DNA from: Candidatus Poribacteria bacterium
Lineage (GTDB): Bacteria; Poribacteria; WGA-4E; WGA-3G
Length of the DNA stretch: 64,000 nucleotides
Reading direction: 5' to 3'
Assembly: GCA_963665235.2 (NCBI GenBank)
Contig: CAXXLX010000001.1
Coordinates: forward strand, 2,560,001 to 2,624,000
The notes beneath the pieces are model-generated. The model was not told the origin of the DNA and did no database searches. It was given only the letters and a program-made list of their open reading frames with translations. A program made the translations under genes and the position numbers. Positions 30,681-63,622 of the stretch are shown piece after piece. Each line of letters opens with the position of its first letter. The stretch's first letter is position 1.

Positions 30681-30746
30681 TCTGAAAGTTTATGCTACAC
30701 ATCGGGGTGATAAACCCCACCAACAACTAACGAAGGAGTTTCTTTC

Positions 30747-43627: not shown

Positions 43628-44101
43628 CAAGTCTTCCGCTACAAAACCCCCGTGCTTTAGCTGGGGGATGTAGTAGCGGCGCATGAGCTAAAATTTTAAT
43701 TTGACTTTTGCATTAAAATGTGGTATAATATATATATCATCAGTGGTTCGGATTACCACCTTCAACGCCACCAATGTTGAAGTTCCGAACCTCAACCTAT
43801 GGTAGGGTTGTGTGCTGATGTTCTGGCGATACCCAGTCAATATCCACATTTTTGTGCAATGCTTTCGGTATCCAAAAGACGGGTCATGCTGCATTGGATA
43901 CCAAAGCACTGATTCACAAGCATAAAGAAGGTGCGAAGCACGAGGGCAGGGCATTGTCCTTTGAGTTAGGGGCAGTAAGACTTGGAACAGCCCAAGCATC
44001 TCCGTTGACGTTCACACGTCTGAAAACCACAATCCAATAGCTAACGCGTAGCGGAACTTTTTAAAAGAATCTCCCTTGCTTTAGCTGGGAGAGTATGTCA
44101 A
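43628..44101 (+). mobile_element. ORF-less IS200/IS605-type element with internal promoter and structured RNA (copy B)
   Basis: Preceded by TTAT; TTGACT-17-TATAAT at 43701-43729; right end GAATCTCCCTTGCTTTAGCTGGGAGAGTATGTCAA. Confidence 0.75.
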
Positions 44102-44153
44102 TGTGCAGGACTGAACCCTCCCTCGGTGGGGGATGTAGGCCCTGCTTTTTTTT
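44102..44153 (+). ncRNA. Candidate small hairpin RNA/terminator convergent on the DUF3800 gene
   Basis: GCAGG...CCTGC stem then T8; orphan promoter at 43594-43622 on the other side of the inserted element. Confidence 0.4.
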
Positions 44154-44167
44154 ATGCTATTTTTTAT

Positions 44168-44815
44168 TCAGGAAGTTGGTCGTATAATTCCTTCAGATAT
44201 TGGTTCTAACAAATTAAATGCCTGGTCGAGACCATACTTCGTTTTAGAAGCGATCGGACGTTCTTGACGAAGCAACGCATAAGCGCAAAAATCAGACAAC
44301 TGAATGAAATATGACTGATCGGATTTCTTAAAAAACGGATCTTCAATAATACGATCAATTGCACCATTTTTTGAAGTTTGCATGCGTCTAACTAATCTTG
44401 TATAGATAGCATCTTTTCCTTCATCACAGATTAAGATCGCATGACTATTCCACCTTTGTAAAGTCCGATTGATATCCTCGAGTAAAGCTGCATAAGCGTG
44501 CTTGCTCGCTTTAGCTGGGAACACGCTGCTAAAAAGTCGTGTTTCTGGCAAGGTTGCCACCATTTGAAGTGTCTGTTTGAAAATTTGGCATCGCCGCCCT
44601 TTGGGAACTACGCCATCAGCAATTCTTCCGCGCCCTGAAACAAATTTCCACGCATGGAATTCAGTGTAAACAGAGATGCTGTCACTCGTCTGTATATCGT
44701 GACGAAAGTCTTTTATTTTCTTAAGACAAGAGTTCCATTTATCATCACGAATCGTTAAGGCTGAAAATATACATAGTTTCTCATCTCCAGAGTCGTCAAT
44801 GTAAATTAGGTGCAT
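44168..44815 (-). CDS. DUF3800 domain protein
   Basis: YIDDSG, EFHA, DEG, IQLSDFCAY (QxxD). Confidence 0.85.
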   Translation of the reverse strand: MHLIYIDDSGDEKLCIFSALTIRDDKWNSCLKKIKDFRHDIQTSDSISVYTEFHAWKFVSGRGRIADGVVPKGRRCQIFKQTLQMVATLPETRLFSSVFPAKASKHAYAALLEDINRTLQRWNSHAILICDEGKDAIYTRLVRRMQTSKNGAIDRIIEDPFFKKSDQSYFIQLSDFCAYALLRQERPIASKTKYGLDQAFNLLEPISEGIIRPTS

Positions 44816-44843
44816 CCTGTCTCCTATGTAAAATACATATCTA

Positions 44844-45014
44844 ACGCGGGCTTGATAATAAATGTCCGTTTGTGCTAGCCTCTATAAACATATCGTCCTT
44901 GAGGAGCGGGAAACCGTTTGCCCGAATACTGGGACTAAGAGGCGGTGGGGAGACGGCTGCTTCTATAAACATATCGTCCCTACGGGACTAAAGAAACTTT
45001 TTTCAAACTCACGT
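44844..45014. mobile_element. ACGTGAG-type MITE with 6-bp TSD (TATCTA)
   Basis: TATCTA at 44838-43 and 45015-20. Confidence 0.8.
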
Positions 45015-45065
45015 TATCTAACACAATTATATTTCTATCACCACGTGTAACGCGTCGACTGCCAG

Positions 45066-45155
45066 CTAGTCGAAAAGGGTAGTTAATGGTGCAAACTGTA
45101 GAGGCCCCGTATCTTGCCATGATTTGAAATTTTGTGCTCTGAGTTCGGTAATCAT
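45066..45155 (-). pseudogene. N-terminal stub of an ABC/AAA-type ATPase
   Basis: MITELRAQNFKSWQDTGPLQFAPLTTLFD*; stops just before the expected Walker A. Confidence 0.55.
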
Positions 45156-45167
45156 AATTTATCCCTT

Positions 45168-46895
45168 TTATAAACCCAACACCTCATTCAGCAAACCTGC
45201 ACTTCTCCGTTCCAATGCCAATATTTCATCGGCAATCTCCTTCAGTGAGCGCAGCGGCGTGTACTGATAGAAATACCGATTGAAGTTAATCTCGTACCCT
45301 ACCTTATCCCTCTTCCTATCTATCCAACTGTCGGGCACATGCGGTTTCACTTCTCGCTGGTAGGAAGCGTCAACATCCTCTGTGATGGGCACCCGTTCAT
45401 AGTCTCGCAGCTTGGTATCCGGTTTCGGATTGCCCTGTTTGTCCGTGACGATATCCCCTGTCTCCGCGTCAATGAGCGGTCTCTCAACCGTTACCTTTGT
45501 ATAACCGAAAAAGTCGTTTGGATAAATTTTTGAGTGTTCGGTCTCCTCAAAGTTGGTGTAGAGTTGTATCAGCTGACGGATATGGTTATCGGAAACGAGA
45601 ACGTTCTTGTCTCCGAGGTTTCTTTTCAGCTCGTCGCGGAAGTCAACGGCGTTGATGAGTTGGACCTTCCCTTGTCGTGCCTCCGATTTTTTGTTCGTTA
45701 GTATCCAGATATAGGTGGCAATATTGGTGTTAAAGAACAGCTTTTCAGGCAGTGCGATAATACACTCCAACCAGTCGTTCTCGATGATCCAACGTCGGAT
45801 TTCACTTTCACCGCTGCCGGCATCCCCTGTAAAGAGCGGTGACCCGTTAAAGACGATTCCAATCCGACTCCCGCGGGCCTCCATTTTGGAGAGCATGTGT
45901 TGCAAGAACAGCAATGCGCCATCGGAGGAGCGAGGCGTGCCTGCTGAGAATCTGCCGGTAGCGGTTTGCGCTTCTGCCTTCACCGCAGGTTCGTCAGATT
46001 TCCAACTGACACCGAAGGGCGGATTCGTAATCATATAATCGAACCGTTCTCCTCGGAATTGGTCCTCGGAGAGACTGGAGCCGTGTCGTATATTGTTGGG
46101 CTCCTCTCCGGTAATGAGCATATCCGACTTACAGATAGCGTAGGTCTGCGCGTTCAGTTCCTGACCCAACAACCGAATGTCAGCATTCGGATTAATCTGC
46201 TCACGGAAGTACTCCTTCCCAACGGTCAACATGCCGCCTGTCCCGCAGCAGGGATCAAAGATACTGCGGACGACCCCTTTTCCGTGCAGGTCTTCGTGAT
46301 GTTCCGCAAATAGCAGTGAGACCAATAATCGCACGACATCCCGCGGCGTGTAGTGTTCTCCGCTGGTCTCGTTGGACATTTCCGAGAATCGGCGGAGCAG
46401 CTCTTCAAAGACCGAGCCCATCGTGTGGTTATCCACCTTATCGGGATGTAAATCGATTTCGGTAAATTTATCGCAAAAGATGAACAGTCGGTTGTTTTTG
46501 TCCAGTCGCTCAATAAACCCATCGAGATTGAAGTTTTCGATGATGTCGCGCACGTCTTGACTGAATCCGCCGATGTAGTTTTCAAAGTTGAGGTGGATAT
46601 TGTTTGCATCTTCTTTCAGTCGGGAGAGGTCGTATTGTGAGATGTTGTAGAAATTAGTTTTTGTCTCTTTTAGAATAATCCGAGGTAGCATTTCTTCGGA
46701 CACTTTATCCTTAAACTCGTTATAGGTATGAATGGCTTTCTCTTTTCGTCCATCCTCGTCTAGGAGACAGTCTAATCGGCGTAACACCAGAAACGGAAGG
46801 GTGATGTCGCCGTATTCGTGTGGTTTGAACAGTCCTCTGAGCACATCATCCGCCACGTTCCAAACCAGATTTGCCAGTTCTTGATAATTTGCCAT
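45168..46895 (-). CDS. hsdM: Type I restriction-modification methyltransferase subunit M
   Basis: GEHYTPRDVV, DPCCGTGGML, NPPF, FNTNIATYIW. Confidence 0.93.
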   Translation of the reverse strand: MANYQELANLVWNVADDVLRGLFKPHEYGDITLPFLVLRRLDCLLDEDGRKEKAIHTYNEFKDKVSEEMLPRIILKETKTNFYNISQYDLSRLKEDANNIHLNFENYIGGFSQDVRDIIENFNLDGFIERLDKNNRLFIFCDKFTEIDLHPDKVDNHTMGSVFEELLRRFSEMSNETSGEHYTPRDVVRLLVSLLFAEHHEDLHGKGVVRSIFDPCCGTGGMLTVGKEYFREQINPNADIRLLGQELNAQTYAICKSDMLITGEEPNNIRHGSSLSEDQFRGERFDYMITNPPFGVSWKSDEPAVKAEAQTATGRFSAGTPRSSDGALLFLQHMLSKMEARGSRIGIVFNGSPLFTGDAGSGESEIRRWIIENDWLECIIALPEKLFFNTNIATYIWILTNKKSEARQGKVQLINAVDFRDELKRNLGDKNVLVSDNHIRQLIQLYTNFEETEHSKIYPNDFFGYTKVTVERPLIDAETGDIVTDKQGNPKPDTKLRDYERVPITEDVDASYQREVKPHVPDSWIDRKRDKVGYEINFNRYFYQYTPLRSLKEIADEILALERRSAGLLNEVLGL

Positions 46896-47104
46896 GCGTT
46901 TCCTTCTCTTTGTAGTCCTATCAATAGGTAAAAATAATAGCAGATTTCAGCCAAAACATTCAAACGGGTGGAGCCATTCAATCCGCAATTTAGACAATTC
47001 CCATTATAACACAAAGTTTCGCAAAAGTCAAATGAAAAATCAATACCTTTGCACCTTTGCAAAAAAATAGTTGACGAAATAGTGGATATATATTAAAATG
47101 GGGG

Positions 47105-47533
47105 GTGAGTACAAATAAACTATCAAATAACGTTCAACAGTTATCACCGGCGGAATTGGACGAATTCACGCAGAAGTTCACCGAATGGCAACATCAACGC
47201 GAAACGTCAATAGACGAGAAGGTCGATAAGGATGCATCGGATGCCGAAGTGTTGGCATTCATTCGGAAAAATTCCCAATTGCCTGAAAAAGAGAATAGAC
47301 GCTATTGGGAACTCCGCCGCATGTCTGACGATGAAACTTTAAGCGATGAAGACCTGCCAGAATACCGCGAACTAGTACGCTGCTTGACAGTTATGACCGC
47401 CAAACGGCTTGAGGCACTCGCTATCTTAGTGCAACGTTGGGAAAAACCTGTCGAAGATATCATGGCAGAATTGGGACTTGTTATCTCCCACTTTGACGAA
47501 CTCGGACTGGCAGAGCCACAGTTGAGGCGTTAA
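47105..47533 (+). CDS. Hypothetical helical protein (possible antitoxin)
   Basis: 142-aa ORF with upstream TTGACG promoter-like sequence. Confidence 0.6.
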   Translation: MSTNKLSNNVQQLSPAELDEFTQKFTEWQHQRETSIDEKVDKDASDAEVLAFIRKNSQLPEKENRRYWELRRMSDDETLSDEDLPEYRELVRCLTVMTAKRLEALAILVQRWEKPVEDIMAELGLVISHFDELGLAEPQLRR

Positions 47534-47815
47534 AAAAATATCCAAACGAAATTGACAGCTTTAACGAGTTGTGCTAAATGACTTTTTGTACAACATTATT
47601 TCACACGAACAGAACGTTTTGCCCGTGTTTCTCATTGGTTTGGACAATCTTCAGTCCCGTAGGGACGATATATTTATAGCTAAACGTTCCACCTTTCTCT
47701 TTAGTCCCGTAGGGACGATATGTTTGTCCGACAACATCCAATATCTGTGAGAAAAACAAAAACAATCAGTTAACTGGCACAAGTCGTAGCTTTAACAACA
47801 ATTGAGTACTGTGTT

Positions 47816-48579
47816 ATGAAAATTCAGTTTTTAGCCCATCGTGGTGGAATGGGGCGCGCCCCCGAAAATACAGTCGCCGCCTTTCAGCAAGCTCTGGCAG
47901 ATGGCGCGGATGGATATGAATGTGATGTCTGCCTCACCCAAGACAAACAACCCGTACTAATCCATGTCGACTTCAACCGAGACGATATTCGAGAAGCCAC
48001 CGGATGCACAGTACCCCTCAGCGAGCTCACGTGGAAAGAGGTACAGCAGCTCACAATGGAAACCTCTGACGAACCCGTGGCACACCTCGACGACGCACTC
48101 CGATTTACACGAGAAAACCGGATGCCGTGTTTTGTTGAACCGAAGTCCGACACGCCGGAACTGCTTTCGTGCATTATAGAACGCATTCAGCACTTTGAGG
48201 TGGCGCATCTTGTTAGCATACTCACGTTTTACTACCGGAAACATCTGCTTATAGCAACGAAAACTTTAGAGCCGAAGCTACAGACCAGCGCAATTCTCAT
48301 CAACCCGATGGCGAACTTCCTTAAAGCCGCCACTGCTATTGATGCAGACCGAATTATCTTGGGCTGGAGTGGCATAAATCACTTCAAACTCTATAATGCC
48401 CTCACGCGCACCGTAACCTCGCGCGTTAAACAACTCCAAACAATTCAGGTTATTGTGGAAGCTGGGTTTATTTTGACAGCCAAGGATGTCGCCTGGGCAG
48501 TGAAAAATGGCATCCAAGGGTTGTGGGTAGATGATGTGCCTTACATCAAACGTTGTGTTCAAGATATTGAAGAGAAAGC

Positions 48580-48583
<4 letters not shown>
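47816..48583 (+). CDS. Glycerophosphodiester phosphodiesterase family protein
   Basis: AHRGG...PENT, ECDV, VLIH. Confidence 0.88.
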
Positions 48584-50996
<2,413 letters not shown>

Positions 50997-51072
50997 TGTT
51001 AGTTGGGGACAGCAGTATTGTGCTATCAGCACTCCCGCTGGCTAGGCGTTTTACCACACAATGTGTTTCGCC

Positions 51073-53808
51073 TTATTTGTCCACACCGACTAAATCCCAT
51101 AATAGCACCGTGCCATCCTCGCTGCCACTGGCAAGAAAAAACTGACCTTTAGGATTAAACGCCACGCTATCGACCGAATCTGTATGTCCACTCAAGGGAA
51201 ACAGGAAATTGCCTGTGTTGACATCCCACAAACGGATTGTGGTATCAGTGCTGCCACTGGCAAGTACTCTACTATCCGGACTAAATGCTACGCTCCTGAT
51301 CCAACCGGTATGCCCCTTTAACGTGTGGAGCAGTTCATTTGTGCTTGCATCCCATAAACAGATTGTCCTGTCCCTACCGCCACTGGCAAGCAATTGTCCA
51401 TCCGGACTAAATGCTATGCTGTTGACACCCCCCGTATGTGCATTTAGGGTGTGCAGTTGCTCACCTGTGTTGACATCCCACAAACGGATTGTTTTATCGG
51501 TGCTGCCACTGGCAAGCGTCCCACTATCAGGACTGAAAAATATGCTCATGACAGAACCGGTATGCTCACTTAGCGTTCGGCGCAGCTCGCCTGTGCTGAT
51601 ATCCCATAAGCAGATTGTGTTATTGGTGCTGCCACTGGCAAGCAGCCGCCCATCGGGACTAAACGCTACGCTCCTGATCCAACCCTTCTGTTCACTTAGC
51701 GTGTGGAGCAGTTCACCTGTGCTGACACTCCATAAGCGAATTGCTCCGTCCATGCTGCCACTCATAAGCACCCGACTGTCAGGACTAAATGCTACGGTAA
51801 AGACATCAGAGCTATCATTCATCAGTGTGTGCAAGTGCCTACCCGTGCTGGCATCCCATAAACGGATCATGTTATCGTCGCCGCCACTAGCAAGCAGTTT
51901 GCCATCGGGACTAAACGCCACACCAAAAACCCAATTTGTATGTTCACTTAGCGTGTGGCGTAGCTCACCCGTACTCACATCCCATATATCCCCAGCTCCA
52001 GTGGCAAGCGTCTGTCCATCGGGACTAAATGCCACGCTAAAAAGCCAAGAGGTATGCTCATTCAGTGTGCGGCGCAGCGCACCTGTGTTGACATCATAGA
52101 AATGGATTCTATTGTACGACCCAGTGGCAAGCAGTTTTCCATCGGGACTAAACGCTACACTATTAACATCCGCCGTATGCTCATCGAGGCTATGGCGCAG
52201 TGCACCTGTGCTTGCATCCCATAAATAGATTGTCCTGTCCCTACTGCCACTGGCAAGCAGCAGCCCCTTTCGACTAAACGCTACGCTGTTGACCTCGGCC
52301 GTATGTTCAATTAGGGTGCGCAGTCGCTCACCTGTGCTGACATCCCACAAACGGATTGTTCTATCGGTGCTGCCACTGGCAAGCAGTTTTCCATCTGAAC
52401 TAAATGATACGCTATTAACCTCACCCATCATATCCTTTTTAACCTCACCCGTCATATCCTTCAAGGTGTGCTGTTGTTCGCCTGTGTTGATATCCCACAA
52501 ACGGATTGTTCTATCGGTGCTGCCACTGGCAAGCGTCTGTCCATCAGGACTAAATGCTACACTATTAACATCCGACGTATGTCCGCTCAAGGTGCGCAAA
52601 TGTATACCTGTGTTGCCATCCCATAAACGAATTGTTTTATCGGTGCTGCCACTGGCAAGCATTCTACCCTCAGGACTAAACGCTACGCTATTAACACCCG
52701 CCGTATGTCCTGTGAGTAGTTCAGATACTTCGCCGCTTTCCGCGTCGTAGAGCCAGATGCCAATACTACTTGCAACTGCTAAACGTGTGCTATTTGGAGA
52801 GTAGGCTACCTCTGCTATTCCGCCTTTACCGAAACGGACTTTTGCCTCTTTTGGCAATTCCCATTGTGTATAGTCTTTGAGAAATTCATCTTCTGCTGTG
52901 GGACCATTATTAATTTGCTGCGCAGGATTATTATTTCGCTTATCCCCCGCGTTGACGTTTCCTATCTGTGTGCGTATATCGGGTGTAAATTCCAGGTTTA
53001 CAACTATAGGTGCGTCAACAATATCGACCGTCATCTCGGACTGCGCGTCTAAACTATAAGGGGGTTGGAAACGCGATAGGTATTGGCTGCCTATTCCGAG
53101 CATCAGGACAATCAAAACGACACTTGACGCGCTCAACGCCCACGGTAACAACGGTTTGCTGCCTGATGGTGCCGCCGGTTTGATGCGGGAAATTTTTCGC
53201 ATAATCTGCTCTGTTAGATTTGTGGATAGCTGGAAATTGCGAAGCGTTTCTCGAATCATCGGTTCCTCCTTTTTGAGTCGCTGCCGGGCCCTGTGTAGTC
53301 GCTGCTTAACCGCGCTTGTAGATATGCCTAAGAACTGACTAATCTCTTCACACGTCATTTCGCCGAAGTAGTGGAGTGTCATCACCGTGCGTTCACTCTC
53401 TTTCAGTTTTGCGAGCAGCTTTTTAACCACCTCGCGCTGTGTTTCAACTGTAGCTTTCGCCTGTTCCGCTGCGATATATTGGGAATATGCCGTATCTGCT
53501 GCCACCTCAATAGTAGTATCATCTAGCGATTCAATTTCAATCCGTTTTTTTCGGAGCCAGGCGTGACATTGCCGATTCGCGATGACGTAAAGCCATCCCG
53601 AGAACTGCTTTGCATCTCTCAGCGTTGTCAGTTTTTGATAGACTTTGAGGAAGGTGTCTTGTGTAATTTCTTCAGCGATGTGAAAGTCGCCAATTTTCCG
53701 CCATGCAAGTGCATGAACCTGCTTTTGATATTTTTTTACCAACGTCTCGAAGGCGGTTTCATCGCCCTCCAAGATGCGGTGTATCAGTTCAACATCGTCG
53801 TTTTTCAT
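51073..53808 (-). CDS. ECF sigma factor fused to TM helix and WD40 repeats
   Basis: AEEITQDTFL sigma2, EEISQFLGISTSAVKQRLHRAR sigma4, TM, many SVAFSPDG..LASGS.D.TIRLWD repeats. Confidence 0.92.
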   Translation of the reverse strand: MKNDDVELIHRILEGDETAFETLVKKYQKQVHALAWRKIGDFHIAEEITQDTFLKVYQKLTTLRDAKQFSGWLYVIANRQCHAWLRKKRIEIESLDDTTIEVAADTAYSQYIAAEQAKATVETQREVVKKLLAKLKESERTVMTLHYFGEMTCEEISQFLGISTSAVKQRLHRARQRLKKEEPMIRETLRNFQLSTNLTEQIMRKISRIKPAAPSGSKPLLPWALSASSVVLIVLMLGIGSQYLSRFQPPYSLDAQSEMTVDIVDAPIVVNLEFTPDIRTQIGNVNAGDKRNNNPAQQINNGPTAEDEFLKDYTQWELPKEAKVRFGKGGIAEVAYSPNSTRLAVASSIGIWLYDAESGEVSELLTGHTAGVNSVAFSPEGRMLASGSTDKTIRLWDGNTGIHLRTLSGHTSDVNSVAFSPDGQTLASGSTDRTIRLWDINTGEQQHTLKDMTGEVKKDMMGEVNSVSFSSDGKLLASGSTDRTIRLWDVSTGERLRTLIEHTAEVNSVAFSRKGLLLASGSRDRTIYLWDASTGALRHSLDEHTADVNSVAFSPDGKLLATGSYNRIHFYDVNTGALRRTLNEHTSWLFSVAFSPDGQTLATGAGDIWDVSTGELRHTLSEHTNWVFGVAFSPDGKLLASGGDDNMIRLWDASTGRHLHTLMNDSSDVFTVAFSPDSRVLMSGSMDGAIRLWSVSTGELLHTLSEQKGWIRSVAFSPDGRLLASGSTNNTICLWDISTGELRRTLSEHTGSVMSIFFSPDSGTLASGSTDKTIRLWDVNTGEQLHTLNAHTGGVNSIAFSPDGQLLASGGRDRTICLWDASTNELLHTLKGHTGWIRSVAFSPDSRVLASGSTDTTIRLWDVNTGNFLFPLSGHTDSVDSVAFNPKGQFFLASGSEDGTVLLWDLVGVDK

Positions 53809-53910
53809 CAAATACCTCCAGAAAATTGATTCATCGTAAACCAATATATAATGACGCGAGCTAGCGGCAAAATGGTTACATAATTCTGGAAAAAGATGGA
53901 TTTCGAGGTA

Positions 53911-54123
53911 ACGTGAGCTTGATAATAAATATCCGTTTTCTCTAAACCTTTTTCATCGCGAAAAAAGCGGTATAATTGTAGCATAAACTTCCTAGTTTGT
54001 GCTCTAAACCTTTTTCATCGCGAAAAAAGCGGTATAATTGTAGCATAAACTTCCTAGTTTGTGCTGTTTTTTGCTAAAACTACCACAGAACGCTCTAGGT
54101 CAAAACTTTTTTCAAACTCGCGT
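53911..54123. mobile_element. ACGTGAG-type MITE with 6-bp TSD (GAGGTA) and duplicated GTAGCATAAAC REP-like unit
   Basis: GAGGTA at 53905-10 and 54124-29. Confidence 0.8.
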
Positions 54124-54211
54124 GAGGTAATAAAATATGTGAACACCTCCTGATAGGCGTGGTTTCCTAACCCACCATTTATCCAAGCCTAGTAGGCGCG
54201 CTTTTATGAAT

Positions 54212-54322
54212 CAGGACTTACGCAAATTTAGCACATAGTCTCGTAGGGGCGAGGTCACCTCGCCCGCTATACCCTTAAATCCCATTATCTATGGACTTTA
54301 TCAAAGCACTGCGTAAGTCCTG
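54212..54322. mobile_element. CAGGACTTACGCA-type MITE with 5-bp TSD (TGAAT)
   Basis: Perfect 13-bp TIRs; TGAAT at 54207-11 and 54323-27. Confidence 0.8.
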
Positions 54323-54328
54323 TGAATA

Positions 54329-56223
54329 TTAATTTTTTAATAAGGAGGTGAGGTCCCATAGAAGTATTGTGCCATCTATACTTCCACTTGCGAGCGTTTT
54401 ATGATTTGGGGTTAAGACAATACTAGAAACACCTGCCGTATGTTCAATGAGCTTTCGGAAGAGCGTACCCGAATCCGTATTCCAAAAACGGATTGAATTG
54501 TCATAACCTCCGCTAACTATTGTGTTTCCATCGGGGTAAATATGAGAGCCGTGACTCCGGAAGTGTGTCCAATCAGCGTATTTTTATGTTGACCGGAGGG
54601 AACATTCCATAAACGAATTGTTTTGTCATAGCTCCCACTAGCGAGCGTACTGCCATCCGGATTGAATGCCAGCGTCTCGACACGGTCCGTATGTCCAGTA
54701 AATTTCTGAATTTGTGTTCCTGAAATCCAATTCCATATACGGATAGTATTGTCATCACTTCCACTAGCGAGCGTACTGCCATCCGGACTGAAAGCTATGC
54801 TAAGGACAGCAGCGGTATGCCCTCTAATTTTCCTTTGTTTACCTGTGTTTGTATCCCATAATCGGATAATATTATCACTCCCAGCACTTGCCAGTATACT
54901 GCCATCTGGACTGAACGCAACACTATTAATGCCTCCGCCGATTATACTCTGGAGAGTTTGCTTGTGCGCTCCCGAAACTGAATCCCAAAGATGGATAGTC
55001 GCATCGTATCCCCCACTCGCGAGTATCGCGCCATCCGGACTGAAGGCGAGGGTATTAATTTGAAATCTATGTCCAGTGAGAGTTTGCTTAGGTGCGCTTG
55101 AATCCCAATCCCATAGTCGAATGTCTGATGTATGTGCACTTGCGAGTATGTGTCCATCTGGACTGAAAGCAATCTCCCAAATTGCTGCGTGGGCATATCC
55201 AGTGAATATTTGCTTTTGTTCACCCGAAATCACCTCCCAAATACGGATGGAACCGTCTCCGCTTGCACTTGCTAGTGTTCGCATATCCGGACTGAAGGCA
55301 ACACTTGCTATATATCCCTCGTGTCCTCTGAGAACTTTCTTTGGCCTACCTGTGTTTGCATCCCACAAGCGGATAGTCATGTCCCCACTACCGGTAGCAA
55401 TTAGACTTCCATCCGGACTGAAGGTAACACAGGTAATATATTTGCTATGTCTTTTGAGGAGTCCTCCGAGGATTTTCTTTTGTTTGCCTGTGTTTGTGTC
55501 CCATATACGAGCAGTTTTTTCATCACCGCCACTTACTAGTAAACTGCCATCTGGATTGAACGCAATACTTCTGACACGCTTCTTATGTCCAAGGAGTGTC
55601 AGTTTATGCACGCCAGAAACCCAATCCCATATACGGATAGTATTATCCCTACTTCCACTTGCAAGCAGTGTTCCCTCCGGACTGAAGGTAAGACTTTCGA
55701 TACCTTTTGTATGTCCTTTGAAGGTATTCTTGTGCCGCCCCGTGTTTGCATCCCACAAGTGGATGTTTCTGGCCCTGCCACCCCCTGCAATAGTAGTTCC
55801 ATCCGCGCTAAAGGCGATGCTTGTAATACCACCGAAAACATCCTCAACCAGTTTCCGTTTTTCTTTTCCTGTAGTAGAGTCCCAAAGACGAATAGTGTCG
55901 TCTTCACCCCCACTTGCGATAGTAGTTCCATCCGCGCTAAAGGCAATGCATTCAACAAAGTCTTTATGTCCTGAGAGCAAGGCGATTTCTTTATAGGTTA
56001 TTGCATCATAGAGTCTAATCCCAATAGAGCTTGCCACTGCTAGACGTGTACCATCTGGAGAATAAACGAGATTTCCAGTTATCACCCCTTTACCGAGACG
56101 TTGTGGTTTGGCACCTTTAGGTCCATTCCATTCTGTATAGTCTTGTGCAAAAATATTGAGTGGCAAAAATATTGAAATGAAAAATAATGCCCAGAGAATT
56201 GCGAAAAATTGTGATTTTTTCAT
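54329..56223 (-). CDS. Secreted WD40-repeat protein, frameshifted near the C-terminus
   Basis: Signal peptide, WD40 repeats; final repeats continue in another frame after the G4 run at 54533-54536. Confidence 0.85.
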
Positions 56224-56249
56224 GTTTTTTTCCCACAAGAGAGGAATAT

Positions 56250-57179
56250 CTATCCTACCAAATACTTAAAGACAGCGGATAAATTGTCGTCAGGGGAATA
56301 GAGTTGAGAAATGTTCAATTCGTTTTCAATCAGAATTTGGGGCAGCCGCGCGTAAAAAGCGTCCGGCTTTGCCGTTTCAATGACAACATCCCCCACCTCA
56401 TTGCCGAAGGTGACGCTAAGAATATCCTCAAACGGCAGACAGATTTGTGCCAAGCGGCGCGGTTCGACAGCCCGCATGTAGACCTTATGCGGGTGTTCAT
56501 CGATAAGTTCACGGATGTCGGAGATAGTCCCTTCCGCGAGGATGCGTCCTTGATGAATGAGCAGAATCGTCTCTGTCATCGCTTCTATCTCATAAAGAAT
56601 ATGGCTTGAGACAACCATGCTGATACCCTGTTCCACAAGTTCCGCGAGTAGTGCTAAGATATGCCGTCTGCCAATAGGGTCAAGTCCGGTGAGCGGTTCA
56701 TCCAGGAAAAGAAGCTCCGGTTCATGGACAAGGGCTTGGGCAAGCTTGATACGTTGGCGCATCCCCTTGCTGTAGGAGCCGATAGGTTTGTCTTTTGCCG
56801 AAAGCATGTCCACCGTTTCAAGCACTTTCAAGCTCCGAGATTCTACGTCCGCTTTGTCGTATCCGCTTAACGTCGCAAAAAAGGCGATAAACTCAAAACC
56901 GCTCATAAATTGATAGGCTAATTCTATATCCGGGCAGTAGCCGATTCGGCGGGTGAGTTGAACGTTATTCCATACCGGTTGGTCTAGGACAGTGATGTGC
57001 CCCTGATTCGGTTTGAGTTGACCGGTCATTAATTTAAGTAGACTTGTTTTGCCTGCCCCGTTAGGGCCTAACAGTCCGGTGATGCCGGGGTGGATTGTCA
57101 ACGTTACGTCATTTACACCTAGGACTTCGCCGTACCATTTGGACAAGTTTTCAGTTTGAACGATTGGTGTGTTATTCAT
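56250..57179 (-). CDS. ABC transporter ATP-binding protein
   Basis: GPNGAGKT, YSKGMRQR, LDEP, SSH. Confidence 0.93.
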   Translation of the reverse strand: MNNTPIVQTENLSKWYGEVLGVNDVTLTIHPGITGLLGPNGAGKTSLLKLMTGQLKPNQGHITVLDQPVWNNVQLTRRIGYCPDIELAYQFMSGFEFIAFFATLSGYDKADVESRSLKVLETVDMLSAKDKPIGSYSKGMRQRIKLAQALVHEPELLFLDEPLTGLDPIGRRHILALLAELVEQGISMVVSSHILYEIEAMTETILLIHQGRILAEGTISDIRELIDEHPHKVYMRAVEPRRLAQICLPFEDILSVTFGNEVGDVVIETAKPDAFYARLPQILIENELNISQLYSPDDNLSAVFKYLVG

Positions 57180-58122
57180 AGTTAGCTTTCAACTGTTTAC
57201 AGATTTTGAGGGTTTCTTCAAGATTTTGGATGCCTGCCGTGGTCCCAATAGCAGTTACACATGCTGCGCCTGTTGCGGACGCTAATTCCGCTGTCGCTTT
57301 GAGCTCCCATTCCATCACTGTCCCAGCGAGGAAGCCGGCGGCATAAGCATCACCTGCCCCGGTGGCATCAATGACCTCTACACAGTATGCTGGAATAGAA
57401 AGTTCTTCAGTATCGGTAGCGACGTAGCTCCCGCGGGCTCCCATTTTGATACCAACGGTGCTAATGCCGTAGTTTCTGAAAAATTGTGCAATTTCGGGCA
57501 GCTCGGATGTACCGGTCAGGTGTTCGGCTTCTGTTAAACTTGGCAGAAAGATGTCAACGAACGGCAAACAAGGTTCCAACGTTTCCAACCACTTTCCTGT
57601 AGCGTCCCAGGCTGTGTCGAGTGAGGTAGTTATGCCCAACGCCTTCGCTTTTCGGAGCACGTTCGCCATAGGGTGTCCATCAAATTTCGGCATCACAAGC
57701 GCGCCCGCGATATGCAGAATCTTCGCGGTTTTAAGAAGTTCCCAATTGATGTCCGCTTCGCAAAGCTCTCCGTTTGCACCGATGTAGTGGCAGAAACTTC
57801 GTTCCCCATCGGAGGCAATTGCGACAAATGTAAAGGAGGTGTTGACGTTAGCATCCTGTTGTATACCGGTGGTATCAACGCCATTTTCGGTGAGCGTTTG
57901 TAAAACGACATTGCCAAAATGGTCGCTGCCGATTTTTCCCATCCCGCCAACGGAGATGCCTAACCGCGAAAGCGCAATCGCTGTGTTATTTGCACAGCCC
58001 CCGGTATGGATTTCTAGTTCATCAAAAAGCTCTAATTTCCCTTTTTCGGGAAAACGGTCTATGGGTCGTCCGAGCACATCGACGACAAAAATTCCGAGCG
58101 ATAGCACGTCCATCCGTTTCAC
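57172..58122 (-). CDS. PfkB family carbohydrate kinase
   Basis: GGCANNTA, DATGAGDAY. Confidence 0.92.
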   Translation of the reverse strand: MKRMDVLSLGIFVVDVLGRPIDRFPEKGKLELFDELEIHTGGCANNTAIALSRLGISVGGMGKIGSDHFGNVVLQTLTENGVDTTGIQQDANVNTSFTFVAIASDGERSFCHYIGANGELCEADINWELLKTAKILHIAGALVMPKFDGHPMANVLRKAKALGITTSLDTAWDATGKWLETLEPCLPFVDIFLPSLTEAEHLTGTSELPEIAQFFRNYGISTVGIKMGARGSYVATDTEELSIPAYCVEVIDATGAGDAYAAGFLAGTVMEWELKATAELASATGAACVTAIGTTAGIQNLEETLKICKQLKANYE

Positions 58123-58157
58123 CTCTTTATCTCCGCTGGTTGTGTATTGAGACTACA

Positions 58158-60113
58158 TCACTGTTTCTCCTCATGGAGATACAAAATCACTAACGTTTCA
58201 TCATTTAACGTAACGTTTCCATCTGTTGCCGTGAGCGGAATTGCTTCTGAAAACTGCTTCGGTTGCGCCATCCACCCAAGACACACCGCCCGCTTAGAAA
58301 TATCGGTTGCGGCGGTGTAGTTCTTTATCTCGGTTGTTAAGTATTGTAACACACCTTCCCGTTGTAAGATTTGCGCGAACGGTTTCCGAGCGACGTTCAA
58401 ACCTTCAGCAGGGGGCATCTTTTCTGCTAGCTTACCGGAGGTGCCAGATGCCAGTATGTCCCTCTCACCGAGTGTGACATTTCCCAAATAGGTTGCTTCT
58501 TCGCCTATAAATCGCCATGCGTCTTCTAATTCTAGAGCCGGTTGTTGCCAATCCAAAAATGCCGTTTTCAGATATGTGCTGGGGCTCCACGGTTCCACAT
58601 AAGCTGCTTGTACCTGAAACAGTGACCCTTGTGTGAGCTTTGGCAACGCTGCGCCGCTCGCTGTTTTTTCTGGTGCCAAAGGACGAATAAAGGTGTCTTG
58701 TGTCAGCACAATTGACGTTTCGGTATGGGCAGTCGCGCGTAGTGACACGTAACTTTGGTAGTGTGCGCGGGCCCGTTCCGGATAGACAGATAAAATCGAA
58801 AACCGGTCCGCCGTGAGACTTTTCGGCAGCACAGTTCGTGCTACACCGATAGTACTGATGGAAATAAGCACGAGAACCGCTCCGCCAAGCCAATAGCTCC
58901 TCGCTTTTTTTTGTGGGTACCGCCTGCCTCTGCTAAAATAGCGGAGGAAACCGCCAAAGCTGAGTAGATATACCGGTAATACTATCGATAGCAGTTTAAT
59001 GAGCGGAACCTGTGTCGGCATTTTTGACAGAAACTGTTCATAAATTTTTTCATCGTGTTTACGATACTGTGCATATCGCGTCGCCAGGAGCCGGGGTGAT
59101 TTACCGTGCGTTTTGAGTAATCCACTCCAAAAGGATTCTGCTGCATGCTGTCCGGAAAATGGAGGGGCGTTGTAATCAAACGAGAGACACAGAATCTGCC
59201 CACTCCCTAAAAGCCGTTTGGCGACGTAAATCTGTTCATTTGTACCAATTACGGTATGGCATCCGGGGTGCGGTGCAAACTGGATATGCTTAAACGGTGT
59301 CCTGATATGCTCCGACATGCCCCCCTCCGACTTAAAGCCGAATTGTTGTTGCAAGACAGGGGGTATAACGTCAAGTGTCTGCTCACGTATCAGTTGAACC
59401 GGCAAAAACTGTTCAATAAAACTCCCTTTCAGGTAACGAAAGTTGCTGCCCCCCGATACAATCAGCGTGCCCCCCCGTTGTATCCAATCTAATAGTGCTG
59501 TTTGTCGTGATTTAGAAATGCGCGTCGGCGTTAGTGCTATCTCACGGATAACGAGCACATCTATGCTGCTATAACCTATCCACTGTGTCGGCATCGCGTC
59601 CGAATTTGGAAGGTATTTGACCTGTATCTGTGTGCCTTCGGCATCTAGTTGTTTTTTGTCAATTAATTTTTGTAGCTTGTCCCCACTCGGCACTAATCCA
59701 AGCACGAAATAGTCGACGTTTTCTATCGATGTTGGCGGTAAAATCTCTTGCATCGCCCTCGGTGCTAATTGCTGCCCCGATTTTTCTATTTGTGCAAGTT
59801 TTATAACAAATTTTGCAGCTGTCTTGGGACAGTAGACATAGAGTTGTTTACGTTGCCAATCGGTTGTGCTGAGCTGCAGCGGCGTAGTGTGTCGCTGAAT
59901 AGGCACATCTGAAATCCGATTGCGAACCTCAACCGTGAGTTCTCCGTTAAACGACGTAGCTTCATTCTGGCTTCGCACGATGACATTCAGGGGCACCCAT
60001 GTTCCCGCTTTGTAGCCGTCGTTGAACCCAAAGGTTACCTCCTCAAAATTCACCGCGCAGAGGGCAGAAGATGCAGCAAAAAATGCTAATAAAAGTGTCG
60101 CTTTTGTTCTCAT
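58158..60113 (-). CDS. Hypothetical membrane protein with GATase-like domain (ABC-associated)
   Basis: Signal peptide, WIQRGGTLIVSGG, two TM helices. Confidence 0.7.
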   Translation of the reverse strand: MRTKATLLLAFFAASSALCAVNFEEVTFGFNDGYKAGTWVPLNVIVRSQNEATSFNGELTVEVRNRISDVPIQRHTTPLQLSTTDWQRKQLYVYCPKTAAKFVIKLAQIEKSGQQLAPRAMQEILPPTSIENVDYFVLGLVPSGDKLQKLIDKKQLDAEGTQIQVKYLPNSDAMPTQWIGYSSIDVLVIREIALTPTRISKSRQTALLDWIQRGGTLIVSGGSNFRYLKGSFIEQFLPVQLIREQTLDVIPPVLQQQFGFKSEGGMSEHIRTPFKHIQFAPHPGCHTVIGTNEQIYVAKRLLGSGQILCLSFDYNAPPFSGQHAAESFWSGLLKTHGKSPRLLATRYAQYRKHDEKIYEQFLSKMPTQVPLIKLLSIVLPVYLLSFGGFLRYFSRGRRYPQKKARSYWLGGAVLVLISISTIGVARTVLPKSLTADRFSILSVYPERARAHYQSYVSLRATAHTETSIVLTQDTFIRPLAPEKTASGAALPKLTQGSLFQVQAAYVEPWSPSTYLKTAFLDWQQPALELEDAWRFIGEEATYLGNVTLGERDILASGTSGKLAEKMPPAEGLNVARKPFAQILQREGVLQYLTTEIKNYTAATDISKRAVCLGWMAQPKQFSEAIPLTATDGNVTLNDETLVILYLHEEKQ

Positions 60114-60167
60114 CGCAACGCCATCTCCACGAAATGCGTCTTTATATAAGACGTAAAAACTATGTTT

Positions 60168-61001
60168 TTAGATGAGGCGCGCTGGATTTTTAGAGAGCCG
60201 TGTCTCCGTCGCGCCATCAAAAGGGGATGTGCTAAAAACCCCGTTCCCTAACATAATCATGGAGGCAACACCCCCTGCCGCCTCAATTTGTGAGATTGTC
60301 TCTATCACCCGTGCATCGCGCAGCAAACCGCTCTCCACTGAAAATTGTTTTGCGACTGCAAAACATTCGGTAAAAAGTGCCTGCTCTTTCACAGCATCTG
60401 TGAGCGATTGCAAAGCAGCTAAGGCGGTATCCGCAGCACGATTGATTCGTCTTGTCTGCTCCGGGTTTCCAAGCACCTCGCTCGTCCGAATCGGGCCGAA
60501 GTACCGATAATAGATAGGTTGTTCAGCAATCGGCAGCCTGTCAGCGACTAACGGCGCGCCCTCCTTCAACTTGACGAGACAACCGCCGTGGTATTGCGAA
60601 CAGACATCGCCTAGCCCAGTGCGATTTTCAACTTCGGCAACGTGTGCTATCATTGCAAGCTCCGCAACGGATTTACGGCGTTGCAGCAGTTCGTTAAGGG
60701 AATATGCTGTTGACAACGCAGCAGCACCGCTCAACCCGAAACCGCAACCGAGCGGCAGCGGGGAGGTAATGTCTACCTTTATGTCTACTTCAGTGAGCTG
60801 ATTGACGACATGCCGAACCGTTGGAAAATTGATACCCTCTCCGTTAAATAGGACTATTGTCTCGTCATGCACAGAGACGGTGACTTCTACACCCTCTTTG
60901 ACTGTAAACCCCATGCCGAGTGAATGCATGCGGGCTGCATCAGGATGCGGAATAACCTTGAAAACACACGAAATGTTGCCAGGGGCAAATGCGCTTGCCA
61001 T
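60168..61001 (-). CDS. GHMP kinase, archaeal pantoate-kinase-like
   Basis: AFAPGNISCVF, PLGCGFGLSGAAAL, AHVAEV..RTGLGDV, MIMLGNGVF. Confidence 0.75.
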   Translation of the reverse strand: MASAFAPGNISCVFKVIPHPDAARMHSLGMGFTVKEGVEVTVSVHDETIVLFNGEGINFPTVRHVVNQLTEVDIKVDITSPLPLGCGFGLSGAAALSTAYSLNELLQRRKSVAELAMIAHVAEVENRTGLGDVCSQYHGGCLVKLKEGAPLVADRLPIAEQPIYYRYFGPIRTSEVLGNPEQTRRINRAADTALAALQSLTDAVKEQALFTECFAVAKQFSVESGLLRDARVIETISQIEAAGGVASMIMLGNGVFSTSPFDGATETRLSKNPARLI

Positions 61002-61039
61002 GTCGCTCCTTTCTTTTTAAGATGAAGAGACTCCCTTAA

Positions 61040-61571
61040 CAATCCCAAGTCTTTAGCTTTGGGTCCAACCCGCGTCTCTTGTGCGACCGCAAATCAAAAG
61101 AAGAACTTTGACTTTTGCACTTGATTCGTGGTATAATATTAGCATAACCCGTGGCAACCTATGTCTCTCTAATACTTGTTAGAGTGGTTGCCCATCCTAA
61201 AGACATAATGGGTTAAGGTTATGGGTTTATTCCGATTTTAAACAACTTCCGTTATCCTGCTATAAGCGAAGGTTAACGGTGCAGGAATTGTAAAACAATG
61301 CTTTGCCACGAAGATAGTGAGTCAGAAAGCGTATCAGGAGGCTGCCCAAACCATTGGTCTCCTGTAGTAGCGTCTGTGGAGCGCGCCGCCTTTGTCATAA
61401 AAGGTCAAGCATTCGTGAACTGCGAATGTCGTAACTTCGGTTTTTCAGGTCACCCGAAGGGGACTTACACCGATGGAGCCGCCGATGAGCGGTAAAATGC
61501 TGCCCGTATGTCTGTAGGGAGACGGGCCTTCTTTATGAGGTCCCACTGCTTTAGCTGTGGGAGTGCTTCAC
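61040..61571 (+). mobile_element. ORF-less IS200/IS605-type element with promoter and structured RNA (element C, second sequence type)
   Basis: CCC..CTTTAGC..GGG hairpins at both ends, TTGACT-18-TATAAT (61108-61137), ends ...GGGAGTGCTTCAC; left boundary approximate. Confidence 0.65.
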
Positions 61572-61632
61572 TAGCCTTAAACGCCTTGCATGTCTACAAA
61601 GTTTATCTAAGGTAGGCTCGGGATGTCCGTGT

Positions 61633-62199
61633 CTATTGAACGCGTTTATAGATGTGCCCCAAAGACAGTTCGCAGCGAATTGAATCCACAGAAAGTACAT
61701 CCGCAAGTTCCGATAATTCGATCACTCTCCACTGCGTTCCTAAGCGAAAATGGCGTTCAACGTTTACCCTGTCTTGCGAAACAAGGATGTACTCTTGCAA
61801 GGACACAATCTGCTTATAGGATTCAAATTTTTCACCTCTGTCATACGCTGCTGTTGAGCGGAAAAGCACCTCTACAATAACAGTTGGATTGAGAAGCGTA
61901 TCAAACATATCATCTTCAAAACGGGGTTCATCACAGACCACAACAACATCCGGATAGAAGTAAGATGGTATTGGCCTCGCCTTCACGCGCATCTCGCTAG
62001 CGTAGACCTCACAATCCCGATTTACCAGTTGATTGTAAAAACCATTAAGTATATTTCCTGTGAGGAGGTTATGTGCGCGACTTGCCCCGGACATCGCGAA
62101 TATCTGTCCGCTGAGATATTCATTTTTGAAGGGTGCTTTGCGTTCCCAAGCAAGGTATTCCTCAGGTGTCAGTTGGGTTTGCACAGCAATGACAGTCAT
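61633..62199 (-). CDS. Uma2 family (PDDEXK-like) endonuclease
   Basis: TPEEYLAWE, AMSGASRAH, YPDVVVVC, VEVL..ST..YDRGEK. Confidence 0.9.
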   Translation of the reverse strand: MTVIAVQTQLTPEEYLAWERKAPFKNEYLSGQIFAMSGASRAHNLLTGNILNGFYNQLVNRDCEVYASEMRVKARPIPSYFYPDVVVVCDEPRFEDDMFDTLLNPTVIVEVLFRSTAAYDRGEKFESYKQIVSLQEYILVSQDRVNVERHFRLGTQWRVIELSELADVLSVDSIRCELSLGHIYKRVQ

Positions 62200-62218
62200 G
62201 ATTTCCTCCTTCAATTTC

Positions 62219-63622
62219 CTACACATTTCGTCGAGGCGGTGCATATCTCGGATGGAAAGAATCTTCACCATATTGCCCATCCGTAATCTTCGCCGCTTGG
62301 CCGCCCCCGGTAACGGAACATCGGGCACCGTCTAATTCTGGGAGAACGTATCGTTCGAACCATGCCCCCATCTGTCGTCGCATGTCAGATATTAGGGCGT
62401 TATGCGACTTGTCATCTATTAGATTTTTCCGCTCACGTGGGTCATTCACAAGATTATAGAGTTCGTGCGGTCCGTAAGGATAGCGGTGGACGTACTTCCA
62501 CTCCTGTGTCCGAATCATGCGTACCGGCCCGTATTCATCAAAGATAACGATTTCATCTTTGGCATCGTTTGTCTCCCCAGAAAGCGCGGGCACGAAACTT
62601 CTACCGGGTGACATGTCGTCATTCGGGTCGGGTAAACCGAGGTAATCGAGAAGTGTCGGCATAAAGTCGTATTGGCTCACCATCGCTTCGCTGACGCGTC
62701 CCGCCGGTATTCTGCCCGGATGACTTACAACAAACGGCACTTTAACAGAGTTCTCGTACATATTCAGCGGAAATGTACCGTTCCCTTTATGCCAAAAACC
62801 GTTATGTCCGCATGAATAGCCGTTGTCACTGCTGAACACAACCACCGTGTTTTCACGGATGCCCAATTGCGTAAGCCGTTCTAAAATTCGACCGACATTC
62901 AAATCAAGGGCAGTAATTGCTGCGAAATAACCTTTCAACGATTCGCGGTTTCCCATGTGTGCTGCCGCACCTTGGACCGCCCACGGATGCAACGCCTCTT
63001 GTGGACACGTCTTGAAGGGACAATCGTCGTAAGAGTCGACAATATCCTGCGGATGTCCTGTAAACGGCGTATGCGGTGCATTGTAGTTCACGCTCAAGTA
63101 AAACGGCCCTTCGCTATTTGCCGAGATAAAATCTAACGCGTCATCGGTGATTACGTCTGTCAGATAGCCGGGTTGCATTTCAACTTCGCCATCCCGAATC
63201 ATATTCGCATCGTTGTATTTGCTCCCCCCGGTCGGTAATGCGAACCAGTGGCTAAACCCGTGTTGCGGTGTTAGGCTATCCCCGAGGTGCCACTTTCCGC
63301 TCAATCCCACGGTGTAATCGTTCTCGGCGAGGACATCGGTATAGCAGGTGAGTCCATCGAGGTATTGAGAGGGGTCGGGGGGCATATTTCCATCCCGAAT
63401 CCAGTCGTGTACGCCGTGTGCTGAGGGAATACGGCCTGTCATAAGACTTGCGCGTGCTGGCGAGCAGACAGGACTTGTGCAGAAGAAATTGGGAAACCGT
63501 GTGCCTTCTGATGCCAATTGGTCGATATAGGGTGTCCGAACTTCATCGTTGCCGGCACAGCCTGCCGCCCACGGTCCCTGGTCATCTGTTAAAATAAAAA
63601 TCACATTCGGTCTGTTTTCCAT
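62219..63622 (-). CDS. Sulfatase
   Basis: PNVIFILTDDQ, CSPARASLMTG, GKWHLG, SDNG. Confidence 0.93.
   Translation of the reverse strand: MENRPNVIFILTDDQGPWAAGCAGNDEVRTPYIDQLASEGTRFPNFFCTSPVCSPARASLMTGRIPSAHGVHDWIRDGNMPPDPSQYLDGLTCYTDVLAENDYTVGLSGKWHLGDSLTPQHGFSHWFALPTGGSKYNDANMIRDGEVEMQPGYLTDVITDDALDFISANSEGPFYLSVNYNAPHTPFTGHPQDIVDSYDDCPFKTCPQEALHPWAVQGAAAHMGNRESLKGYFAAITALDLNVGRILERLTQLGIRENTVVVFSSDNGYSCGHNGFWHKGNGTFPLNMYENSVKVPFVVSHPGRIPAGRVSEAMVSQYDFMPTLLDYLGLPDPNDDMSPGRSFVPALSGETNDAKDEIVIFDEYGPVRMIRTQEWKYVHRYPYGPHELYNLVNDPRERKNLIDDKSHNALISDMRRQMGAWFERYVLPELDGARCSVTGGGQAAKITDGQYGEDSFHPRYAPPRRNV

Follow-up and report, generated by a model that had tools for sequence, protein, structure and literature searches.

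Element C, a gene-less IS200/IS605 element of Candidatus Poribacteria with a pseudoknotted tnpB-type leader and a TnpB omegaRNA-like scaffold

Anatomy of element C and its relatives in the genome

The stretch of Candidatus Poribacteria DNA analysed here (64,000 nucleotides, hereafter the window; positions 2,560,001 to 2,624,000 of contig CAXXLX010000001.1, assembly GCA_963665235.2, forward strand) contains three short elements, A, B and C, that have no open reading frame (ORF). Judged from their ends they are derivatives of IS200/IS605 transposons, lying among many tnpB elements of the same genome. TnpA and TnpB genes are both plentiful there; PF07282, the TNB domain of TnpB, has 42 matches, of which 35 fall in open frames of 370 aa or more, one of these frames being broken by an internal stop. 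Element C, the main subject of this work, is very probably a palindrome-associated transposable element (PATE) whose own promoter would direct the synthesis of a composite RNA of ∼430 nt, made up of a 5′ leader of the kind that precedes tnpB genes and a 3′ TnpB omegaRNA scaffold. The features of this and the related elements are collected in Table 1.

Table 1. Features of element C and of the related elements A, B, D and E. Coordinates are those of the window except where a contig label is given.
Feature	Coordinates	Strand	Remarks
Element C	61029-61571	+	ORF-less IS200/IS605 derivative (PATE), 543 bp
TGAAG, likely target or transposon-adjacent motif (TAM)	61024-61028	+	Directly left of element C; proposed from conservation
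Left end (LE)	61029-61107	+	Subterminal hairpin 61044-61063, GCTTTAGC-like loop
Promoter	61108-61137	+	TTGACT(61108)-18 nt-TATAAT(61137); sigma-70-type, 11/12 consensus positions, TG extension
5′ leader module	61143-61223	+	P1, P2, P3, P4, pseudoknot
P1	61143-61149 / 61217-61223	+	CATAACC/GGTTATG
P2	61153-61159 / 61186-61192	+	GGCAACC/GGTTGCC
P3, P4		+	CTCTAA/TTAGAG; ATCC/GGGT
Pseudoknot	61160-61166 / 61201-61207	+	TATGTCT/AGACATA
Middle domain	61224-61330	+	ATTCC/GGAAT helix around a hairpin, conserved single strand GTAAAACAA, another hairpin before the scaffold; from alignment and RNAalifold
OmegaRNA-like scaffold	61331-61571	+	Starts GTATCAGG, ends ...GGGAGTGCTTCAC; from profile homology
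Right-end hairpin	61542-61561	+	Same type as LE hairpin; tail AGTGCTTCAC ends at 61571
Candidate guide flank	61572-61591	+	By analogy with TnpB omegaRNAs, if transcription passes the right end
Element B	43629-44101	+	LE, promoter, leader module 43732-43820, middle part, omegaRNA-like 3′ part, right end (RE)
Element B P1	43738-43743 / 43815-43820	+	CATCAG/CTGATG
Element B kissing pair	43754-43758 / 43800-43804	+	TACCA/TGGTA
Element A	23948-24430	-	Copy of B on the opposite strand; leader module 24230-24323
Element D	G000:C1:~1891806-1892355		Third ORF-less family; locus L098 (G000:C1:1891700-1892500), at ~107-656
Element E	G000:C1:~984990-985500	-	Promoter, leader module, tnpB 3′ remnant; locus L099 (G000:C1:984800-985700), ~190-700

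A search at the DNA level finds C-type elements of ∼500 nt and ∼70% identity, with some match in 17 of 101 related genomes, and ten copies were aligned. A TGAAG motif stands ahead of the left end in nine of these ten, the remaining copy having TGGAG, and likewise precedes all six full-length elements with the left-end type of element C; the spacing from TGAAG to the hairpin, 21 nt, is the same in C as in the B family. On the right, the copies diverge immediately past ...TCAC, which in element C is ...GCTTCAC at 61571. An empty site for element C was looked for and none was recovered; what is seen at its two limits is the conservation of TGAAG and the divergence past ...TCAC.

The first 55 nt of element C are 93–95% identical to the left ends of the tnpA-tnpB elements at G000:C1:734447-734501 and C2:795837-795891, which bears out the view, put forward in an earlier note on this DNA, that a structured RNA is carried here between IS200/IS605 ends. 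Elements sharing this left end encode a 137-aa protein, a Y1 transposase by Pfam (PF01797, E 6e-31), and a protein of 426–429 aa that is a TnpB (PF01385, PF07282), the 426-aa form being encoded at G000:C1:732545-733825. Since the 137-aa protein accompanies the same left end, the cognate Y1 TnpA that element C needs is present in its own genome. The right-end hairpin-plus-tail build is also common to element C and the tnpA-tnpB elements (AGTGCTTCAC and GAGTATCAC, respectively).

The promoter (TTGAC...TATAAT or TATACT) is conserved at the same position in all ten aligned copies and, as the earlier note had it, the fold begins directly after it. The helix of the middle domain covaries by eye (ATTCC/GGAAT, AATTCC/GGAATT, CATTTTG/CAAAATG). 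No ORF that could encode a small protein is kept in place or strand across the ten C-type members, whose longest ORFs differ in both, and ARAGORN detects no tRNA or tmRNA gene in the window.

Elements A and B belong to a family with nine full copies in the genome, at 90–100% identity and with differing flanks, bounded on the left by TTATC (9/9) and on the right by ...TATGTCAA. The number and near identity of these copies indicate that the B family has transposed recently. Its first ∼113 nt (hairpin and promoter) and last 44 nt recur at the ends of ∼12 elements of 1.4 kb, which encode a 400-aa protein, for example at C1:63538-64740, that is a TnpB by Pfam.

Homology of the scaffold and fold of the leader

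The last ∼190 nt of the tnpA-tnpB elements, GTATCAGGG...CCCTGTAGTCG...GAGTATCAC, align with element C from GTATCAGG (61331) to its right boundary. An nhmmer profile of the 3′ part (ten C-type copies, 218 positions) matches four full-length elements, in each case in the tnpB 3′ end and right end, in sense orientation and over profile positions 1–211, with E-values of 5e-5 to 1e-3. In the same way the last 198 nt of element B match the last ∼160 nt of at least ten of the 1.4-kb tnpB elements (E 4e-11 to 1.6e-9). The profiles built from the 5′ part and the middle part of element C find, in its own genome, only C and its paralogue. Conservation of the scaffold stops at the right-end boundary, ...GGGAGTGCATCAC, in 10/10 copies, beyond which the flanks are unrelated, and the last 8 nt pair with GTGGAGCG ∼195 nt upstream, forming eight pairs of which two show compensatory changes (alignment columns 260–267 and 456–463). 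Because omegaRNAs are encoded by the tnpB 3′ end together with the right end, the homology with this region identifies the scaffold: the 3′ ∼240 nt of element C are, on this evidence, a TnpB omegaRNA scaffold, a known kind of RNA, for which TnpB binding is predicted. The earlier note had suggested that the elements possibly carry one undescribed large non-coding RNA class, and this part of its proposal falls, given that C over its 3′ ∼240 nt and B over its 3′ ∼160 nt both have homologues at tnpB 3′ ends and right ends.

The ∼430-nt RNA of the C-type elements is under strong structural selection. RNAalifold applied to the ten copies gives 80 pairs, of which 40 have changes on both sides. G-U pairs are common, occurring in 10/10 copies at two of the pairs, and A-C cells are rare, from which it follows that the folded strand is the plus (sense, top) strand.

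The leader is a module of ∼85 nt separate from the scaffold, in the form of a three-way junction locked by a pseudoknot of 6–8 bp. Every segment of the pairings quoted in the earlier note lies where that note had placed it, in both elements. P1, P2 and the inner hairpin also appear when the sequences are folded singly, but these folds are only moderately better than those of shuffled sequences: z is −2.26 for C, where 6 of 200 shuffles do as well, and −3.04 for B, where a single one of 200 does. In a MAFFT alignment of the leader from the ten C-type copies, nine of them distinct, which was not fitted to any structure, 87.3% of cells pair as against 71.5% in shuffles, and none of 500 shuffles reaches this level. 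Compensatory change is extensive, with 21 of the 32 pairs of P1–P4 and the pseudoknot altered on both sides, in agreement with the selected structure that the note had proposed. Controls with the structure slid along the alignment reach 38–44%.

The pseudoknot, or kissing pair, can be followed across a wider set of sequences. At least six contiguous Watson-Crick pairs join the internal loop of a sequence to its own P4 hairpin loop in 33 of 37 distinct sequences of all types, and seven do so in 24, whereas cross-pairings between mismatched partners average 3.6 pairs. Among 73 distinct 80-nt modules from public genomes a perfect 7-nt complement is found in 64, with 28 different 4-nt cores; P3, by comparison, has only 11 variants. 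We conclude that the leader motif is well supported, by dozens of distinct sequences, and that their covariation makes a strong case for the pseudoknot.

Elements B and C had been described as unrelated in sequence with the same architecture. Their common topology is upheld by a covariance model of P1–P4 made from C-type copies alone (R1) which, run on the window with filters off, places A second (21.0 bits, E 9e-4) and B third (20.7 bits, E 1.1e-3), the next match scoring 12.3 bits (E 0.36). The supposed lack of sequence relationship does not hold to the same extent, because the junction nucleotides U-GG entering P2 and the lone U that follows P3 are common to B and C, and B is detected by the model derived from C. 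The leaders of A/B and C thus share a real architecture and are probably homologous.

The variability of the pseudoknot core is of a distinct kind. All four core positions may differ between leaders that are otherwise identical, and the partner strand is then altered accordingly. Of 39 leader pairs in which P3, its loop and the 5′ side of P4 are the same, 26 differ at two to four of the four core positions, two at one and 11 at none. Our reading is that P2, P3, P4 and the junctions are constrained in sequence and that the core seems to need complementarity only, within the limit that the pattern used to collect the 80-nt modules itself fixed P2 and some other positions. Diversifying selection on the core was considered and set aside, since constraint elsewhere or recombination between leaders would explain the pattern equally well. 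A third pairing partner for the core was also rejected; in the 12 of 13 full-length elements where the pattern found the module, only scattered one-mismatch hits appear. No likeness between the leader and the omegaRNA of the same element is seen by eye in seven elements.

The C-derived covariance model identifies two further carriers in the same genome, elements D and E. Element D combines a left end and promoter of the B type with a distinct version of the leader, whose pseudoknot is TTAACG/CGTTAA, a different middle part and a B-like 3′ scaffold (nhmmer E 0.0027), and its right-end hairpin is partly deleted. In element E the leader is followed by a 52-aa open frame with the zinc-ribbon/RuvC motif of TnpB and then by its 3′ region, and no left-end hairpin is seen upstream; it looks like a snapshot of internal deletion, midway between a full tnpB element and an ORF-less one. 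Both are visibly decayed, and this favours the possibility that all the small elements are deletion remnants, their fold inherited baggage and their RNA inert. We regard it as improbable, however. C-type copies from at least seven genomes are only ∼70% identical and yet retain the promoter in 10/10 cases and all helices and the pseudoknot through compensatory changes, and the B family, with its nine closely similar copies, has moved recently. A separate observation from a relative concerns a C-type ORF-less element (L040:77-1579) that is split by a mobile element with a 319-aa ORF on the opposite strand.

In this genome the pseudoknotted module is found only in ORF-less elements and remnants. 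The full-length tnpB elements (G000:C1:63520-64936 and ∼11 similar ones, and G000:C1:1066500-1067937) have simpler 5′ leaders, consisting of nested hairpins such as GCGGAGAA...TTCTCCGC.

The leader in front of tnpB genes

In related genomes the same fold occurs as the 5′ leader of full-length tnpB genes, so that it is not the peculiarity of small elements for which the earlier note had taken it. R1 has matches in 37 of 101 related genomes at E ≤ 0.01 (family f1, 35/60; f2, 0/11; f3, 1/22; f4, 0/7), and in 58 of 151 genomes of an even sample of the phylum at E ≤ 0.001 (f1, 55/99; f3, 2/26; the other seven families, 0/25). High scores (65–92 bits) belong to ORF-less C-type elements in 14 of the 15 cases examined, the other being an orphan module. 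Scores of 25–40 bits mark an 80-nt version of the leader, located between the left-end hairpin and promoter on one side and the start codon of a full-length ORF on the other; all five such ORFs tested are TnpB by Pfam. The exact core pattern occurs in at least 110 stretches of a one-genome-per-species collection, and among the matches listed for the 80-nt pattern all 80 records are titled Candidatus or uncultured Poribacteria. Where enough flanking sequence is available (59 modules), an ORF of at least 300 aa lies within ∼15 nt in 46 cases and one of 100–299 aa in eight, with none in five. Across 11 elements conservation is much higher in the leader than in the TnpB proteins behind it, with a median identity of 81% (64–94%) compared with 40% at the amino acid level (27–86%) for TnpB and 67% for the left-end region.

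These homologies bear on whether the whole ∼430-nt RNA might instead be a self-standing new class of large non-coding RNA, unrelated to TnpB guides and merely riding between IS200/IS605 ends. The RNA is long and structured throughout, its middle domain has no detectable relative in the genome outside C and its paralogue, and no part of it matches Rfam 15, HEARO and IS605-orfB included, in which respect the earlier note was right. The window contains no match at gathering score; at E ≤ 10 the region 60900-61750 yields HgcC only (16.1 bits, cut-off 50), and at E ≤ 1 three full-length loci yield snR107 only (25.1 bits, cut-off 44). Nevertheless, homologues of the 3′ 240 nt lie at tnpB 3′ ends and right ends, the 5′ fold is the leader of full-length tnpB genes, and element B displays both homologies with another TnpB lineage, which together make a self-standing class barely credible.

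The module always starts 5–7 nt past the −10 box and, in full-length elements, ends 12–15 nt before the tnpB start codon. A role for the fold in the single-stranded DNA (ssDNA) transposition intermediate, perhaps in compacting the element or marking it for TnpA, has to be weighed here. IS200/IS605 elements transpose in the form of top-strand ssDNA (PMC10055086), and the top strand is the one that folds; moreover, G-T wobbles are tolerated in DNA, such that covariation does not separate an RNA from top-strand DNA. It is nonetheless by transcript landmarks, namely the −10 box, the tnpB start codon and the duplicated strand at the ATG described below, that the module is placed, and not by the transposon ends, and some orphan modules persist without such ends, upstream of host genes. 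A DNA-level role consequently seems improbable, and we favour a structure acting in the transcript.

The orphan modules (L091:1501-1620, L074:1501-1589, L077:1501-1571, L078 and L079) have a promoter and no recognisable transposon body, and are found directly upstream of ordinary-looking host ORFs, of 151 aa in L091 and 211 aa in L074. They may be left-end remnants that now drive host genes.

Full-length elements have two tandem copies of the P1 3′ strand, as in GACTTGAG-ACTTGATA-TACC-ATG. When strict 5-nt seeds are applied to 56 leaders, 28 show two sites complementary to the P1 5′ strand, 26 show one and two show none. The duplicates are offset by 7 nt in 24/28, the second copy ends 4–6 nt before the ATG in 23/26, and when the 5′ strand of P1 changes both 3′ copies change along with it. 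By inspection, no Shine-Dalgarno sequence lies near the second copy or the ATG of the full-length leaders. C-type elements hold a decayed duplicate (GGTTATG-GGTTTAT-TCC) with no ORF after it. The duplication fits, without proving it, a two-state leader that would hide or free the start region, and in full-length elements the leader probably also gates tnpB translation through the choice between the two 3′ copies of P1.

Some of these properties would also be expected of a ligand-sensing riboswitch or of a self-cleaving ribozyme, either of which could gate or release the RNA that follows. In its 80-nt form the module folds compactly into a three-way junction locked by a loop-loop contact, with junctions and helices that hardly vary; this tuning-fork build resembles that of purine riboswitches and hammerheads, and the two alternative partners of P1 adjoin the start codon. 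At the thresholds given above, however, Rfam 15 contains no riboswitch or ribozyme that matches the C region or the full-length loci; by inspection the hammerhead core is absent from the junctions, and no gene context points to a metabolite. We consider either identity highly improbable. Our reading of the leader as a translational gate can be taken further, in a tentative way that we think less likely to be right than wrong: the leader would represent a new family of cis-acting RNA switches for TnpB nucleases, perhaps sensing TnpB or a host factor, which the ORF-less elements have co-opted as a 5′ handle that stabilises or delivers a promoter-driven guide RNA. If so, the ORF-less elements would be TnpB parasites of long standing that contribute nothing but a guide RNA, and would mark a natural step on the way to guide RNAs with genes of their own.

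Proposed role of the composite RNA and comparison with known systems

The small elements likely arose from leader-bearing tnpB elements by loss of the ORF. Both ends needed by the Y1 TnpA are retained and should permit mobilisation in trans. The internal promoter would give a single RNA of ∼430 nt, starting at or within a few nucleotides of the leader and passing out through the right end, and the scaffold would be loaded in trans on to TnpB from a full-length element, with the flanking DNA serving as guide. TnpB would then cut the emptied donor site next to the TGAAG motif, and recombination would copy the small element back into it, in the manner already known for the homing of these transposons.

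Several observations weigh against this proposal. No TnpB with a closely matching scaffold has been found, the best full-length relatives in the same genome matching the scaffold profile only with E-values of 5e-5 to 1e-3. At E ≤ 1 there is no full-length tnpB with the pseudoknotted leader in the genome of element C. The assignment of TGAAG as the likely TAM comes from its conservation. Minimum free energy folds that leave out the pseudoknot close P1 with the first 3′ copy in 30 of 40 cases, with the second in nine and with another pairing in one, and do not show a switch. In ISDra2 the 5′ part of the omegaRNA is trimmed and dispensable, according to the portion of PMC10097598 consulted, such that the leader may add nothing to cutting. 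Finally, the one RNA run found, a metatranscriptome with a small share of the region, and three runs of unrecorded kind with most of it all consist of assembled contigs; aligned with 43400-62400, they show no starts, ends or strand for element C RNA.

Whatever the leader does in the ORF-less lineages has to concern the RNA itself, because the fold is kept by compensatory changes at ∼70% identity across several genomes where no ORF is left to regulate. It could well act as a 5′ cap against 5′-end-dependent decay or as an insulator for folding of the scaffold, a suggestion to which we give somewhat less than an even chance. Binding of TnpB or a host protein by the leader is conceivable but rather unlikely, and the remaining probability falls to some other role or to none.

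As a PATE carrying an omegaRNA, element C is a known kind of element and does not constitute a wholly new RNA class. In the parts of the Geobacillus stearothermophilus preprint considered here, PATEs "often encode omegaRNAs" that would be used in trans by TnpB (PMC10055086). They resemble element C in their subterminal hairpins at both ends, in the absence of a protein gene and in a right-end-proximal omegaRNA that needs a TnpB encoded elsewhere and TnpA in trans. Element C differs in that it contains a near-consensus promoter and that its scaffold is preceded by a further ∼190 nt of conserved structure, comprising leader and middle domain; the passages of text compared describe no similar 5′ domain.

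The scaffold itself invites comparison with the omegaRNA (reRNA) of ISDra2 as presented in the sections of PMC10097598 consulted. Like the scaffold of element C, it comprises the tnpB 3′ end and the right end, stops at the element boundary with the guide beyond, formed by the flank 3′ of the right end, and contains a long-range pairing, its guide-adjacent nucleotides forming a pseudoknot with a distant segment (PMC10097598). The C scaffold is longer, at ∼240 nt compared with the 116 nt resolved for ISDra2, lies outside any tnpB ORF, and has TnpB binding as a predicted property. It shows no detectable sequence similarity to a curated family.

HEARO, the omegaRNA of IscB, and IS605-orfB-I/II resemble the RNA of element C as large structured RNAs tied to IS200/IS605 elements and often found in ORF-less copies, but their Rfam 15 models give no match at E ≤ 10 in the C region or at E ≤ 1 in the full-length loci. 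HEARO has its guide at the 5′ side. A relationship to IStrons, in which a group I intron is fused to an IS605-type element, was rejected, there being no group I intron match and the module being only 80–90 nt long and following a promoter. IS200 offers an analogy for a structured 5′ untranslated region in the left end; a hairpin in the leader of its tnpA mRNA probably limits translation of the transposase, and a small RNA derived from this leader can become independent of it. That leader is a simple stem-loop before tnpA, whereas the C-type leader is a pseudoknotted three-way junction before tnpB.

A full-text literature search listed no paper on a structured tnpB 5′ leader and none in which Poribacteria and TnpB occur together. 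What is apparently undescribed, then, is the promoter-driven composite RNA, the pseudoknotted tnpB leader and the existence of ORF-less lineages that have carried it for a long time. Cas12 descends from TnpB, itself a compact enzyme for genome editing, and to our knowledge little is known of the natural control of TnpB expression and of its guide supply. The leader motif is located where tnpB expression would be controlled, and its natural compensatory variants make it a clean test case. The data also suggest that guide RNAs can survive over long times as genes in their own right, driven by a promoter and located on transposons that encode no protein. A leader that stabilises or loads the guide might be of help in engineering omegaRNA expression; with an inert leader, the finding is that of a well-documented PATE family.

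Other repeats in the window are distinct from these elements. At 12892-13179 a 32-nt unit (CACAAACTGGAAGTTTATGCTACAATAAAGAG) is repeated head to tail ∼7–9 times, at 99% identity and without spacers, and one inverted copy with flanking sequence occurs 30 kb away, at 42799-42856. A dense array at 29228-30684 contains ∼12 copies of a 93–160-nt repeat with hairpins of the CCCGTAGGGG type, a separate short repeat family of which single copies are also present at 47646-47738, 38156-38236, 44881-44993 and 4973-5390. Minus-strand coding sequence at 51094-52716 and 54353-55977 includes long runs of a 126-nt (42-codon) repeat, at 60–80% identity, as in repeat proteins of the WD40 type.

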